Shown piece by piece: positions 44,058 through 48,258 of a stretch of DNA of 51,759 nt; the first letter of the stretch is position 1, and each line of letters begins with the position of its first letter. The DNA is from a virus. Lineage: Duplodnaviria > Caudoviricetes. The position numbers and the translations under genes are program-made. Location: the IMG/VR virus record IMGVR_UViG_3300024232_000017, positions 1-51,759 of that record; one strand, given 5' to 3'. The notes under the pieces were generated by a model, which worked only from the letters and a program-made list of their open reading frames with translations, searched no databases and was not told where the DNA came from.

Positions 44058-44550
44058 AGAATTTATTTATTTAAAGGGTAAAGTTTCCTGGGTTCGTCAC
44101 TTGAGACCAGACGATAAGTATGGCAAGTGGAACTGTAAGCTTCATCCCGATGTTGAGTCCCTAGAGAAGATCAGGGAACTTCAACTCGCACAGAACGGCG
44201 TCTCTGGCATCAAGAATGTCCTTGGTAAGGACGATGATGGCTATTACATGGGCTTCTCTCGACCTGTGAATAAGCTGATGCGTGGGCAAGTCGTTGCATT
44301 CACTCCACCTGTCGTAGTCAACGCAGATGGTTCACTCTTCCAGGGTGACGCTATCGGCAATGGCACTGACGCAACCATTAAAATTGAAGTCTACACTCAC
44401 GGTACTCCTGGCGGTGGTAAAGCCAGAGCGTGTCGTTGGGAGTCAATGAGAATTGATCACTTAGTTCCTTTCGATAAGAATAGGGATTTGGGTAAAGAAG
44501 AGTTGGAGGCAGTGAAAGAACTGGTCAACCAACCTACCCAATTGTTCTGA
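44050..44550 (+). CDS. Single-stranded DNA-binding protein (T7 gp2.5-like OB fold)
   Basis: LKGKVSW..L..PD, PVVV..DG, IGNGT motifs; synteny. Confidence 0.7.
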   Translation: MAKEFIYLKGKVSWVRHLRPDDKYGKWNCKLHPDVESLEKIRELQLAQNGVSGIKNVLGKDDDGYYMGFSRPVNKLMRGQVVAFTPPVVVNADGSLFQGDAIGNGTDATIKIEVYTHGTPGGGKARACRWESMRIDHLVPFDKNRDLGKEELEAVKELVNQPTQLF

Positions 44551-44661
44551 CGTAGCTCAATATGTAGAGCCCGGCATCGGCCAGCCCCGCAGACACGCAG
44601 GGGACGAACTGGATAGCCTAACGGCAAGTCGGAGATACGGGTGTACGACCCGTCGTCAGAG
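44546..44661 (+). ncRNA. tRNA-like RNA with anticodon loop replaced by a ~52 nt structured insert
   Basis: Acceptor TCTGACG/CGTCAGA, D arm GCTC/GAGC, stem CCGGC/GTCGG, T arm ACGGG-TGTACGA-CCCGT. Confidence 0.7.
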
Positions 44662-44662
44662 T

Positions 44663-44905
44663 TCTAGGTACACGGATCCTCGGGTTCATTCCTAGCGTCT
44701 ACCACAGGACGTTAAACTTGAAGTGTGGTCTGTCTTGGCAGACAGACGGTAAACTGCCCTTAGTCTGTAGCTGTAGAATGAAGTGTCCCTTGAAAGGCAT
44801 GGACAGGCAAGCAGTTGGGAAATCCGGACCGCGACGGCGGGTAGGTATGCTTAGGTGTATGGCGATCGCAAACTTAAATGAGGACGTTCGCTGCCTTCGG
44901 CCTAG
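44663..44905 (+). ncRNA. Candidate structured RNA
   Basis: No credible ORF; stems CTAGG/CCTAG, GTCTGTC/GACAGAC, AACTGC/GCAGTT, TGTCC/GGACA. Confidence 0.4.
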
Positions 44906-44937
44906 CATTTTAACCAATAATAAGAAAGTTCAAAGAT

Positions 44938-45465
44938 ATGACTCAAATAACAATTACCGAAGCACTTGCTGAGATTAAGACTGTCGGCAAGCGTATTGCT
45001 TCGAAGAAAGAATTCGTTAACAAATATCTCGTGCGGGTTGAGACGATGAAAGACCCGTTGGAGAAAGATGGAGGTTCTTCCGTCGTACTTTCTCAAGAAT
45101 TGCAAGCAATTGCAGACCTTGAGCAAAGAATAGTGAACCTTCGTCGAGGTATTCAACAGGCCAACGACGAGACCAAGCTGAATGTCGAAGGCATCGACCG
45201 TTCGATTACTGATTGGCTCACGTGGCGTCGTGAGGTATCGGAAGGTCATCGTCTCTTCCTGCGTAATCTCCGGGTGAATTTGGAGAATATGCGTAGTGCT
45301 CAACGTTCTCAGAGATTTAATTCTCAAACTGAGAAGCCTCTGGATATCATTGTCAACGTCGATGAGAAGAAGCTCGCCGACGAAGCTGAGAAGCTCGACA
45401 ATATCCTGGGTCAACTCGATGGACAACTTTCGTTGAAAAATGCAACCGTAATGGTGAACACATGA
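44938..45465 (+). CDS. Coiled-coil protein (DIP1984/DUF6847-like)
   Basis: TITEALAEIK..KRI N-terminus, I..AN..T, LD..L...NA C-terminus; family call from memory. Confidence 0.65.
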   Translation: MTQITITEALAEIKTVGKRIASKKEFVNKYLVRVETMKDPLEKDGGSSVVLSQELQAIADLEQRIVNLRRGIQQANDETKLNVEGIDRSITDWLTWRREVSEGHRLFLRNLRVNLENMRSAQRSQRFNSQTEKPLDIIVNVDEKKLADEAEKLDNILGQLDGQLSLKNATVMVNT

Positions 45466-45569
45466 CATTCTGGAAAACCGTAGGTGCTGTACTGGTCGCA
45501 CAGTTGATTGGTACTTTGATTATCTTGGTCCCCTATGTCGTCACAATAGTTGTACTAGCGACTAAGTAG
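45462..45569 (+). CDS. Small membrane peptide (35 aa)
   Basis: ATGA coupling; MTFWKTVGAVLVAQLIGTLIILVPYVVTIVVLATK. Confidence 0.5.
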   Translation: MTFWKTVGAVLVAQLIGTLIILVPYVVTIVVLATK

Positions 45570-45576
45570 TTCCTAA

Positions 45577-45846
45577 AATAACCTTCTGCAGCGAAGTGAG
45601 AAAACTGTAGACAAACAAGTTTACTGGCCCTAAAACCAGTGCATCATTGGAGATGTAAAGAGGACTCGATATCCTCGCAAACTCAAAGCTCAACGTTCAG
45701 AGATCAAAGTTTAGGATTTCAACGTTCATAGTTAAGAGCTTAAAGTTTATCCAAACCCACCAATAATCTGGTCCATTTAGAAATAGATGGCACACGCAAG
45801 TTTACAAGCGTGTTCTCAGGATGGTGGCTGCTACACGGAGGTTATT
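45577..45846 (+). ncRNA. Candidate ~270 nt RNA with internal heptamer repeat array
   Basis: Closing helix AATAACCTTC/GGAGGTTATT, five internal hairpins, nine YTCARAG-like units at 45682-45745. Confidence 0.65.
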
Positions 45847-45891
45847 AATTCATTAGGCAATTTTGCCAGCAAGCAAGAGAAGGAGAGCCAA

Positions 45892-46164
45892 GTGAATTTG
45901 TCTGCAACGAAGAAGTTCATCGGTTGTTCGCACCCTGGTTCATACACCAGCGGTACACCCAAGACACTTCTCGAGGTTCGGGCTTGGGCCAAGCAAATGC
46001 TTGGGCAGCACAAGAACATCAACACGGTGTTCATCACCGAAGCCGTCGAGACTTGTCAGCGCACTGAGCCGCCTGTTGTATTCATTGGGTTCACCGCTGA
46101 ATCGGCGACCAATGGCCACGACAGCCATACAGCCGATACCGAGGAACTGCCCAGTCAGTTCTGA
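45892..46164 (+). CDS. Hypothetical protein
   Basis: AAGGAG RBS before GTG 45892. Confidence 0.65.
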   Translation: MNLSATKKFIGCSHPGSYTSGTPKTLLEVRAWAKQMLGQHKNINTVFITEAVETCQRTEPPVVFIGFTAESATNGHDSHTADTEELPSQF

Positions 46165-46177
46165 TTACTTTACGACG

Positions 46178-46219
46178 TAAGGCCCTGGAGGGTAAAAGCT
46201 TCAGGGCCTTATTTTGTTT
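46178..46219 (+). terminator. Rho-independent terminator
   Basis: TAAGGCCCTGGAG/CTTCAGGGCCTTA plus TTTTGTTT. Confidence 0.85.
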
Positions 46220-46237
46220 ATATTGAGGAGAAGAACG

Positions 46238-46516
46238 ATGCGGGAGCAAGATCAAATCTTAGGGGTGAGCTTCCGTAATACGGCAAGGCACTTCCGAAAG
46301 AAGTACGGGCCGATTGGACCTGATGGTCCACGTCTCCCATCTTATCCTGATTTGTCCATTAAGGCTGATCGTAAAGAGATTCACCTTCATCCTCGATGGC
46401 AGCGTACAGAACAATGTAGTTGTGGATATCCTTGCGAACCATGCCAATATGGAGCCAAGGACAATCAGCGAAACTTCTGTGCGAAACTCGACCTCAGGTC
46501 TCCAAAACCTGAGTGA
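46238..46516 (+). CDS. Hypothetical protein with Cys cluster
   Basis: GAGGAG RBS; CSCGYPCEPC. Confidence 0.5.
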   Translation: MREQDQILGVSFRNTARHFRKKYGPIGPDGPRLPSYPDLSIKADRKEIHLHPRWQRTEQCSCGYPCEPCQYGAKDNQRNFCAKLDLRSPKPE

Positions 46517-47100
46517 CCCACAGTCAACTTCCCGCTAGGCGTGGAACCCTAGTGACTGGAATACTGATGGTAGAACTCCTCGCAAGAGGACAGTCCCTTA
46601 ACCGAGACAGCGGCACCAGGGCGACCTGATGTGGGATATCAGCAACGAGCAATTGTTGCTACCCGTCTTTCTAGGTCTGAGGAAGAGCCCGGACTTAGGT
46701 TGTTCGGAGGCTAAAAACAACGAACAAGGATCCGACTGAGTTAAAGCTTAACAACCTTTAACCCGGAGCCAGTGGCCAAAAGGGAGTACCGCGGAGCCTT
46801 CCGGTGACAGACGTCAGATCAGTCAGCATCCCGTAGTTGTAAGAGCAATGCGACCTTGCTTGGGTAGTTGTCAAAGACTATGACCCACTCGACTTAGGGA
46901 GAAAACGCGGTGTGCAAAAGGCTCTCTACAATCCGCTTGTACCCACTCATCGCAATGATGAGGAAGCAACCAGAACGTATGTCGTGGCCTACGTGCAGAG
47001 TAGTACTCTGTACCCCACTAGGGCTCAAGTAGGAGACTATTCCAACTAGACATACGAAGTCCCCGTAAGGATCCTGTGAATGGACCTTCAAGGGCATACG

Positions 47101-47180
47101 CAACTCACGAGGCTTGGAAACCTCTGCAGGTTCGAGTCCTGTCCCCACCGGGGTGGTGAAACGGAAAACACAGTGAGTTG
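47101..47180 (+). ncRNA. Circularly permuted tRNA-Leu-like domain (YrlA-type topology)
   Basis: Variable arm, T arm GCAGG-TTCGAGT-CCTGT, closed acceptor CCCC-ACC-GGGG, D arm GTG..GG..CAC, closing helix CAACTCAC/GTGAGTTG. Confidence 0.75.
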
Positions 47181-47638
47181 GAGAGTAAGTCCTGAACCCC
47201 TACTAGGCTGCTGCAGCGCAAATCTGCTCGTGGTATGATCCTCCAAGATGGGGCCGAGGTAGAAAGGGATTTACTGATGGGAATGCCGACCGAAAGCAAG
47301 GATGTCTCCTGATCGGTGTTAGGGAACGTATCTTCGTGTGAACCTGGGTATGAACTCTTTCGCAGTTGATCACAGTAGCCAAATAGAAATCGCACCCCGT
47401 AAAAGTCGCCACATGCTAGCGTTTTCGTTGAACGCGGATCTGGTTGGGGAAGACACAGTCGCGTGGTGTCGGAGGTGAAAGTAAGAGCTAGTCCTTGAAA
47501 CTTGTCGATGCACTGACGTTGCTCTGCCTGATGAGGTGGCAGAAAGGATACCGAAGGAGTTGCTCGGTGAACGCTAGGAAATGAAAAGAAACCTAGCTCC
47601 GGCTGTCTACCGGAAAAGTGTTGAAAGCCCACTGCGGG

Positions 47639-47693
47639 TAAAAGGGGAGAACTTTTTAGAAGGGAGGAACCTTTTAAAAGGGGAGAGCCTTTA
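47639..47693 (+). repeat. Three tandem ~18 nt hairpins with SD-like purine loops
   Basis: AAAAG-GGGAGAA-CTTTT, GAAGG-GAGGAA-CCTTT, AAAGG-GGAGAG-CCTTT. Confidence 0.75.
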
Positions 47694-48258
47694 CGGCAGG
47701 ATTGGTTAGTAAACAGCCCAGGTCCAAGCGTGCTCCCAGGAAGGAGAAGCTGTGTGTCTCGCCGAAGGACTTGAATTCGTAAAGGGCAATATCTAGAGGA
47801 AACCAACGGATGCACACATCGTGAATGGTGTGAAATGTGGGAGTTACGTCCCATGCCTGATCTTGCAGCGACCGTGAAGACAAGTCTGACGCAGCCGAGA
47901 CTAGGGTTGAACCTAGAGTAGGCGCACCCACCGATCTCATCAGTCGGCTCGGGGTGAAGTCTCTGGAAGAAAGCGCAGAAGTGCATGAACTCTCTGTACG
48001 GTAAGATGAACTAGGACGTGCTTGCTAAGTCTACGGATGTATGCGACAATGTCCGAATTGTAGACGCCCTAACCGCACAATGCCATCGGCAATGGGGCTA
48101 TGTTCAGGTTACGTTCAAGAGAGGGAATGTCCCGTACTCTCACTAAGGATGGATGATCATGTGTCCATACCAGGGTTGGAACATACGGAGACTAGTAGGC
48201 TTGCGACGTGCACGCCCTCCATAAGGAGATAGCCCACATGCGGAGAAGGAGAAAAACA

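Follow-up and report, generated by a model that had tools for sequence, protein, structure and literature searches.

A probable giant structured non-coding RNA at a fixed locus in the replication arm of soil podovirus-like phages

Analysis of the window, the complete 51,759-bp stretch of DNA of the IMG/VR virus record IMGVR_UViG_3300024232_000017 (a soil, podovirus-like phage genome that is rated complete), revealed that positions 46517-48237 of the plus strand very likely encode one very large structured non-coding RNA of about 1.7 kb, here termed block C after its part free of open reading frames (ORFs). Block C is the divergent window copy of a 1.2-1.7 kb RNA family that occupies a fixed locus in most of the related soil podovirus-like phages of approximately 50 kb, downstream of the genes for family-A DNA polymerase (PolA) and a gp2.5-like single-stranded DNA-binding protein (SSB), and upstream of those for a small membrane protein, a Cas4-like exonuclease and endonuclease I. 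The comparisons described below point to a large plus-strand RNA fold that is under selection at this locus, with a 3′ anti-Shine-Dalgarno (anti-SD) segment predicted to pair with the Shine-Dalgarno (SD) sequence of the next gene.

A preliminary description of this stretch had depicted about 2.3 kb of a 3.7-kb interval as non-coding but structured and interleaved with a few small ORFs. Extent and arrangement are confirmed here: three stretches lack a plausible plus-strand gene, namely block A (44551-44937, 387 nt), block B (45570-45786, 217 nt) and block C (46517-48207, 1691 nt), which amount to 2295 nt, and the ORFs p175, p35, p125 and p100 lie between them (Table 1). The structured character stood only for the 1.7-kb block C, based on compensatory strain variants and family modules, and fell for block B, for which no consensus fold was obtained. 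Each plus-strand frame of block C contains 26-31 stop codons, and reassigning TAG, TGA or TAA singly opens no plus-strand frame across it. The G+C content is 0.51 in block C compared with 0.42-0.47 in its flanks.

Covariation and compensatory change

Thirteen relatives of the window phage (L017, L019, L023, L024, L091 and others; related loci carry L numbers), referred to as the L017 clade, share 59-71% identity over approximately 1.2-1.4 kb of ORF-free sequence that begins right after p166. RNAalifold applied to 11 non-redundant members yielded a structure of 288 pairs in 61 helices, in which 90.8% of the cells were paired, compared with 36-38% when the pairing partners were slid by one to three alignment columns. 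The number of pairs changed on both sides (135 vs. 30-50 slid) and the number of double-change cells (313 vs. 37-76 slid) were likewise elevated, and none of 500 shuffles reached any of the observed measures. Within paired positions, 300 G-U cells were counted versus 70 A-C cells, an excess which identifies the folded molecule as the plus-strand RNA and not as DNA or the antisense strand. The clade fold contains three T-arm hairpins, and at its 3′ end a covarying G+C hairpin is framed by CUCCU paired with AGGAG of the downstream gene (helices 59 and 61; 96.4% paired in the 11 sequences).

Compensatory change was also detected at a much shorter evolutionary distance, between the window and X2 and X3, two near-identical relatives present in other soil runs. 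Between 46571 and 46767, 15 listed positions separate strain X2 from the window; ten of these make up five compensatory pairs, located in helices available to the reference sequence: two in helix Hb (46672 T>C with 46697 A>G; 46673 A>T with 46696 T>A), one in hairpin Hc (46702 G>A with 46718 C>T) and two in helix Hd (46731 T>C with 46767 A>G; 46732 C>T with 46766 G>A). Of the other X2 changes, 46695 T>C converts a G-U pair of Hb to G-C, the change at 46646 turns a C-G pair into U-G, and 46748 T>C lies in a loop. Strain X3 contributes two pairs in hairpin Hf (47068 A>G with 47087 T>C; 47069 G>T with 47086 C>A) and one in hairpin Hg (47144 C>T with 47152 G>A), accompanied by a change in the Hg loop at 47147, by 47136 G>A in the T-loop and by one change from U-G to U-A. 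All named helices were checked on the sequence. Eight clean pairs were thus obtained by reading (five in X2, three in X3), while an automatic count of candidate compensatory pairs gave seven for X2 (1.6 expected) and three for X3 (0.5 expected), values that were reached by 1 and 25 of 2000 randomisations of the positions, respectively. In contrast, variants in the neighbouring ORFs fall mostly at codon position 3: both p104 variants (48480 and 48507) do so, as do four of the five X3 substitutions in p100 (phase worked out by hand), a bias which suggests that p100 is a real gene. Strain X3 additionally carries a 21-nt insertion (15 + 6 nt) at 47278-47279 in the RNA, and its contig runs into unlike sequence at 47383. 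The part of the RNA around 47278-47383 appears to be variable even between strains.

The RNA family and its window copy

The relatives comprise 76 viral contigs found via PolA, many of them about 50 kb long, and 80 metagenome contigs found via the exonuclease, out of 181 relatives found. They keep the gene order pol, p166, variable interval, exonuclease, endonuclease I and p81, and the p166-exonuclease interval ranges from 113 to 4174 nt among 85 distinct intervals (window included). An ORF-free stretch, i.e. one without a plus-strand ORF of 50 codons, of at least 500 nt is present in 67 of the 85 intervals and one of at least 1000 nt in 26. The primary sequence of the interval is poorly conserved between relatives, and short motifs recur in a fixed order: GGAGGCTAAAA, CGGTGACAGACG, the tRNA T-loop GGTTCGA[GC]TCC, GTCTCATTAGC and CCTCCTTAA, the last of which is positioned immediately before the ribosome-binding site of the next gene. 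When the nhmmer profile of the L017 clade was iterated to convergence, colinear matches were obtained in 49 of the 85 intervals.

The most widely shared piece of the family is a tRNA-like core that consists of GGUAUGCA, a helix H1 of 6-7 bp whose loop is GUGAAA or GUGCAA, a linker of 4 nt and a helix H2 of 5 bp closed by a T-loop or degenerate T-loop. Across 23 diverse sequences, all 12 of its 12 pairs covary, with 83% of cells paired (30-48% with slid partners) and 74 double-change cells (9-30 slid). R2, a covariance model of this core, gave 77 matches across 81 sources (76 on the plus strand), and at E ≤ 0.01 it is found inside the interval in 39 of 80 related loci by our own count; R2-positive loci include L063, L020, L156, L035, L059, L100, L006, L052 and L056, none of which was in the seed. 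Because R2 also matches a genuine tRNA-Leu gene over its full length (L044 1798-1858), the core is shown to be tRNA-like. The RNA carries one to three such tRNA-like half-modules, in each of which a 4-nt linker joins an anticodon-arm-like hairpin (GUGAAA-type loop) to a T-arm. A second module, found in only part of the family, consists of a hairpin (loop GGAGGCUAAA) and, after it, CCGGUGRCAGACG..GAUCAGYC. It exhibits perfect R/Y covariation (GC in five and AU in three of eight), and its covariance model R1 matches 24 places, while its motif occurs in only 18 stretches in all of IMG/VR, mostly on contigs of about 50 kb of this phage family. The conserved hairpin loops of the RNA family are GGAGGCUAAA and UCUCAUUAG.

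Attempts to trace the family beyond these phages were unproductive. A 19-base motif searched in 596 Gb of cellular genomes gave 96 stretches, which is about chance by estimate, and none of the 80 loci among them that were scanned contained an R2 core match at E ≤ 0.01, so that no host lead was obtained. Nor was a repeated phage promoter recognised, as neither the D2/D3 repeats nor the 5′ TAATACTTAA conserved in the clade RNA is a genome-wide motif.

In the window, the ORF-free plus-strand block C lies between p166, the gp2.5-like SSB gene, and the genes for the small membrane protein and the Cas4-like exonuclease, as in its relatives, with an extra cassette (p175-p100) inserted between p166 and the RNA. 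The gene directly after the RNA, p104, has counterparts in the L017 clade, where p104-like ORFs with an FGPP motif follow the RNA. The two best R2 matches in the entire window both fall in block C on the plus strand, and the window core (47808-47862) is identical to that of L120 in 47 of 65 aligned columns. Both parts of the second module occur in family order (46699-46721, then 46797-46826); the loop motif of the first, Hc, is found in 13 intervals in which the stems around it differ between phages. A T-arm matching the GGUUCGANUCC consensus is located at 47126-47142. By nhmmer, 268 nt of block C align with L005 (E 6e-14), as does, at weaker similarity, another stretch of 727 nt, and L005 has an R2 core match of its own at the corresponding place. 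A MAFFT alignment (A3) of the gac region misplaced the window hairpin and was not used. The giant structured RNA of the preliminary description is therefore upheld by clade covariation, strain variants and family modules, and its tRNA-like parts by the core modules and the T-arm. The claim of two tRNA-like elements fared differently: the likeness is real, since ARAGORN with a lowered threshold and introns allowed returned exactly two candidates (44544-44664 and the tRNA-Leu-like 47016-47151, with "introns" of 45-61 nt) and the T-arm is canonical, but both candidates are sub-threshold, with none found at default settings and no match in Rfam.

Several points weigh against this interpretation. 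Single-sequence folding energies were no better than those of shuffled sequences (z of −0.22 for element A, and +0.23 and −0.39); as single-sequence folding was uninformative, the structure was tested by comparison. That comparison relied on slid and shuffled controls, and the clade structure was predicted from the same alignment in which its pairs were then counted, which flatters the paired fraction of 90.8%, the excess of double changes still being large. The strain contigs are of low depth (3-5). The R2 match to the full window core (47800-47867; 12.6 bits, E 0.034, filters off) and the R1 match (46743-46842; 19.1 bits, E 0.14 in 1.24 Mb) are both weak when taken alone, and the iterated nhmmer profile of the L017 clade never reached the window, to which only L005 aligns directly. 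Furthermore, the DNA runs that contain the window sequence are all soil metagenomes, and no RNA run is among the public runs containing it. The proposed family membership of the window thus rests on the modules, the synteny and L005, signals which are individually weak and agree in position, order and strand.

Neighbouring elements and genes

The features of the locus are compiled in Table 1. The plus strand from 29 kb to the end of the window encodes a primase-helicase, a UDG-family protein, PolA, the Cas4-like exonuclease and a T7-type endonuclease I, while the capsid, portal, large terminase, tail and internal virion protein genes occupy the minus strand at 1-28 kb. By polymerase, the closest isolates are marine Roseobacter, Lentibacter and SIO1-type podophages, with merely 34-38% identity. 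PolA measures 796 aa in the window compared with a matched span of about 650 aa in most relatives, which would correspond to an insertion or extension of about 140 aa. For p166, a PDB sequence search returned weak internalin matches alone, which were judged to be noise, and a scan of viral contigs gave no pattern match.

Table 1 Features of the window at and around the RNA locus (positions refer to the window).
Feature	Position	Strand	Description
PolA, family-A DNA polymerase	41287-43677	+	796-aa ORF
p166	44050-44550	+	directly after polymerase; weak match to gp2.5-like single-stranded DNA-binding proteins, E 0.0017
Element A, degenerate tRNA-like	44546-44712	+	directly after p166; ARAGORN 44544-44664 at lowered threshold with intron allowed
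Rest of block A	44713-44937	+	ORF-free leader of p175; no credible ORF
p175	44938-45465	+	coiled-coil; PHROG match annotated "tail fiber protein", E 9e-14
p35	45462-45569	+	35-aa hydrophobic ORF after p175
Block B	45570-45786	+	conserved intergenic sequence; 5-6 iterated CAAAG(C/T)T boxes, local direct repeats
p125	45787-46164	+	
Intrinsic terminator-like hairpin	46177-46212	+	after p125; 14-bp stem, then T run
p100	46238-46516	+	92 aa from ATG; good SD upstream
Block C, very likely a giant structured non-coding RNA, ~1.7 kb	46517-48237	+	ORF-free, syntenic with the RNA region of relatives; modules R1 and R2; strain variants; approximate bounds
Helix Hb	46671-46679 with 46690-46698	+	compensatory changes in strain X2
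Hairpin Hc	46699-46721	+	conserved loop CGGAGGCUAAA; strain X2 pair 46702/46718
Helix Hd, enclosing hairpin He	Hd 46728-46734 with 46764-46770; He 46740-46746 with 46756-46762	+	strain X2 pairs
Conserved module UCCGGUGACAGACG..GAUCAGUCAGC	46797-46826	+	exact motif common to relatives
Hairpin Hf	47067-47088	+	loop CUGUGAAU; core-like H1; strain X3 pairs
Canonical T-arm (GCAGG-UUCGAGU-CCUGU), then hairpin Hg (CCCC-ACC-GGGG)	47126-47153	+	R2 match 47125-47142; strain X3 variants
Antisense ORF, 293 aa	47105-47986	−	judged spurious
Three tandem 18-nt units (UAAAAGGGGAGAACUUUU-like)	47639-47692	+	lineage-specific insert within the RNA
Family core: GGAUGCA, H1 (CACAUC-GUGAAU-GGUGUG), AAAUG, H2 (GUGGGA-GUUACG-UCCCAU)	47808-47862	+	best R2 match; both helices verified
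Anti-SD CUCC with SD GGAG of downstream gene	48217-48228	+	loop AUAA; read from sequence
p104	48238-48522	+	small, K/E-rich; C-terminal hydrophobic segment (FGPW); gene directly after RNA
Cas4-like exonuclease	48548-49393	+	

Element A is built from a D-arm-like 5′ part, an insert of about 95 nt, a poor T-arm-like hairpin, a 3′ strand and an ACCA end. Its ends align with a "tRNA-???" of L039 (13065-13160) that begins the ORF-free region of that locus, and by reading of this alignment two compensatory differences are found in the acceptor-like stem. Across 171 related loci, nhmmer detected no whole-length homologue. We read element A as a degenerate tRNA-like element that would mark an ancestral tRNA-like position after p166 and was probably separated from the big RNA by the later cassette. 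Odd tRNA-like elements with 2-nt and 4-nt "anticodons" were reported by ARAGORN directly after the SSB-like gene in L072 (12914-12988) and at the L039 position named above; in L072 the element is the sole item between the SSB-like gene and the exonuclease, an arrangement that may represent the ancestral state of the locus. A 15-nt complementarity (87%) between the 3′ end of element A (44689-44703) and the big RNA (47566-47580) is, by estimate, about what chance would give in a region of 4 kb. The remainder of block A has neither a homologue nor listed variants in strains X2 and X3.

Block B contains a conserved 5′ block (CCTTCT.TAGCGAAGTGAGAAAAC) and is matched by nhmmer in seven loci, six of them distinct, all of which carry the p175 cassette (e.g. 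L011 13386-13600, L041 14723-14968 and L030 13453-13700). RNAalifold gave just four pairs in six sequences. Block B, largely made up of its iterated boxes, probably serves as a site at the DNA or regulatory level rather than as a structured RNA, conceivably as an operator or iteron array. In L041, L030 and L007 its middle is interrupted by a T-arm hairpin. The p175-p100 cassette in the replication arm is common, in part, to only six relatives. For p100, neither a Pfam or PHROG match nor a tblastn match in relatives was obtained; it is probably coding and specific to the window lineage.

No tRNA gene was detected in the window by ARAGORN at default settings. Among 57 related loci scanned, which are partial in extent, at least 13 contain genes for tRNA-Leu(UAA) and/or tRNA-Ile(GAU), in most cases situated some 9 kb upstream of the polymerase gene (L009, L022, L028, L032, L039, L041, L044, L045, L051, L055, L058, L063 and L067).

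Possible roles, alternative explanations and relation to known RNAs

The RNA would be transcribed together with the replication genes, and the fold itself, rather than a product, would constitute its function. Two roles are conceivable, each of which we put forward tentatively. By analogy with GOLLD and ROOL, two phage-encoded RNAs discussed below, the RNA may be a stable, trans-acting scaffold or decoy, engaging host factors with specificity for tRNA elbows or SD-like loops. It is also possible, at a similar level of confidence, that folding at its 3′ end controls whether the small membrane protein encoded downstream is translated. Both roles are not mutually exclusive, and a combined scenario is offered here as a tentative proposal only: a new class of giant phage RNA that grew by duplication of tRNA-derived half-modules beside a tRNA-like gene and acts in trans as an RNA-only scaffold or decoy (for example a multimer like those of GOLLD and ROOL, or a sponge for the host factors named above), while its 3′ end links the folding of the RNA to translation of the following gene.

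The rival explanation that survives best, and that we nevertheless consider somewhat unlikely, is that of a giant, purely cis-acting leader (a riboregulator in the 5′ untranslated region) of the small membrane-protein and exonuclease genes, whose fold decides whether the anti-SD occludes the SD. The pairing of anti-SD and SD immediately before the start codon, in the window as well as in the L017 clade, fits such a leader, as does the upstream terminator, which suggests a transcription unit beginning near the RNA. The RNA and the downstream ORF of about 100 aa also travel together: in the distant relatives L072 and L077 the interval is just 113 and 277 nt, leaving neither an RNA-sized spacer nor room for the ORF. 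However, 1.2-1.7 kb with about 290 conserved pairs far exceeds the need of any known leader, and SD gating gives no evident reason for the tRNA-like modules and conserved loops. A leader of this kind would also leave room for a role in trans.

The preliminary description had gone further and combined element A, block B, the giant RNA and a repeat RNA into a single machine, co-transcribed and equipped with a partner protein. The four share the plus strand and lie within 3.7 kb, A and C both have tRNA-like parts, and, given that the homologue of the ends of A starts the ORF-free RNA region in L039, the big RNA may originally have had element A as its 5′ end. The co-occurrence of the elements across related phages, proposed at the time as a check, did not bear this out, as A, B and the repeat do not travel with the RNA: element A is without homologue in the 171 loci, and block B is confined to six distinct relatives and lacks a fold. 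The supposed repeat RNA turned out to be no separate element, since the three 18-nt units, each of which could form a small hairpin with a GGGAG/GGAGG loop, lie inside the big RNA and recur in none of the 84 other intervals. Block B and the 18-nt repeat are thus not conserved parts of the RNA. Moreover, the strong terminator between blocks A/B and block C argues against simple co-transcription, and no candidate protein co-varies in presence. The four-part machine is largely refuted by these co-occurrence data, and we regard it as improbable.

Three further explanations appear very improbable. A decaying tRNA gene array or a functionless spacer drifting neutrally would account for T-arms identical to the tRNA consensus, for the true tRNA-Leu and tRNA-Ile genes of the 13 scanned relatives and for the cross-match of R2 to tRNA-Leu, but covariation and compensatory changes reveal selection for pairing, and module length and order are kept although the flanking proteins are just 45-65% identical. 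The neighbourhood of SSB, exonuclease and resolvase genes in the replication arm, together with an interval length that varies between phages, would suit an element acting as DNA, for instance an origin of replication, packaging site or hotspot of recombination; the prevalence of G-U over A-C (300 to 70) and the 76 of 77 core matches on one strand indicate single-stranded, plus-sense RNA instead. Equally doubtful is a very divergent member of a catalogued class (GOLLD, ROOL, group I/II intron, tmRNA or RNase P): GOLLD and ROOL are likewise phage-borne, large and associated with tRNA-like sequence, but neither an Rfam nor an ARAGORN tmRNA match was found. Least probable of all is a protein-coding function, be it through the long antisense ORF or a recoded stop, since that ORF, its length and the multiple-of-three X3 insertion notwithstanding, has no Pfam or PHROG match, is S, L, P and R-rich in composition, overlaps helices with compensatory variants and has no conserved long counterpart in L017, L005 or L127, no stop reassignment opens the plus strand, and substitutions pair in helices rather than follow codon phase.

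The searches against known RNAs were negative throughout. At gathering score, no Rfam family was detected in the window or in 13 of its relatives, and at E ≤ 10 the window block and the L127 RNA returned nothing meaningful beyond noise (CRISPR-DR58, 19 bits; sR14, 13.7 bits). No match of the block was obtained by blastn against 50,697 phage records. A tmRNA was found by ARAGORN neither by default nor in -m mode at a lowered threshold, and there was no Rfam match and no tag reading frame; no Rfam intron model matched, and the block is intergenic. In agreement with the preliminary description, which had named no equivalent, full-text literature searches turned up no description of such an RNA, and a term search of one preprint gave 0 occurrences (bioRxiv 10.64898/2026.10.21.760802).

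The closest analogues are GOLLD and ROOL, to which the window-family RNA is unrelated in sequence and which it exceeds about twofold in length. According to the report describing both, GOLLD is a large, covariation-supported non-coding RNA of phages and prophages that is often located beside tRNA genes, with tRNAs sometimes within its linker; it has a better conserved and a variable part, with "many members exceeding 800 nt", and its function is unknown (bioRxiv 10.1101/2024.12.08.627333). The same report describes ROOL (Rumen-Originating, Ornate, Large) as encoded by phages or prophages near tRNA islands, with a complex fold, a 659-nt example and no known protein partner or function, and states that GOLLD and ROOL form cages and that GOLLD pulls down ribosomes (bioRxiv 10.1101/2024.12.08.627333). 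Like GOLLD as characterised there, the window-family RNA is large, covariation-supported, phage-encoded and tRNA-associated. It differs from GOLLD by the lack of an Rfam match, its length of 1.2-1.7 kb, the tRNA-like half-modules, the fixed locus in the replication arm of soil podovirus-like genomes and the SD-sequestering 3′ hairpin, and from ROOL by the lack of an Rfam match, its greater length, and its habitat and host range.

The resemblance to tRNA itself lies in the canonical T-arm of the family (GGUUCGAGUCC), in the core layout of anticodon-arm, 4-nt linker and T-arm, and in element A and the odd elements of L039 and L072 at the same place. Unlike tRNAs, no cloverleaf is accepted by ARAGORN or Rfam, the core modules lack an acceptor stem and CCA, and the H1 loop has 6 nt (GUGAAA) instead of the 7 nt of an anticodon loop. 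tRNA-like domains inside larger RNAs are a feature of tmRNA and of bacterial Y RNA (YrlA), with which the window-family RNA shares a T-arm-bearing tRNA mimic embedded in a longer RNA; it is several-fold larger than these, has no ARAGORN tag frame and matches nothing in Rfam, a search that would cover these families provided that release 15 contains them. Lastly, csRNAs are viral structured-RNA candidates, some of them tRNA-like, that were mined from IMG/VR by covariation; as these models measure only 29-151 nt, they could include no more than fragments of the window-family RNA (PMC10690425).

Taken together, these comparisons point to a new family of very large phage non-coding RNA that matches no Rfam model. 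To our knowledge, selection is known to maintain the shape of very few RNAs of more than 1 kb outside the ribosome. Among phages, the largest examples are GOLLD and ROOL, which measure about 0.6-0.8 kb and were reportedly found in recent work to form RNA-only cages. An unrelated phage RNA of about twice that length with hundreds of covarying pairs would be a prime structural target. At least 39-49 related soil phage genomes contain the family, whose assembly from tRNA-like pieces is plainly visible; if this reading is true, it provides a worked example of how a large RNA evolves from tRNA genes, and soil viromes would still conceal major RNA classes in what annotation pipelines list as empty intergenic space.

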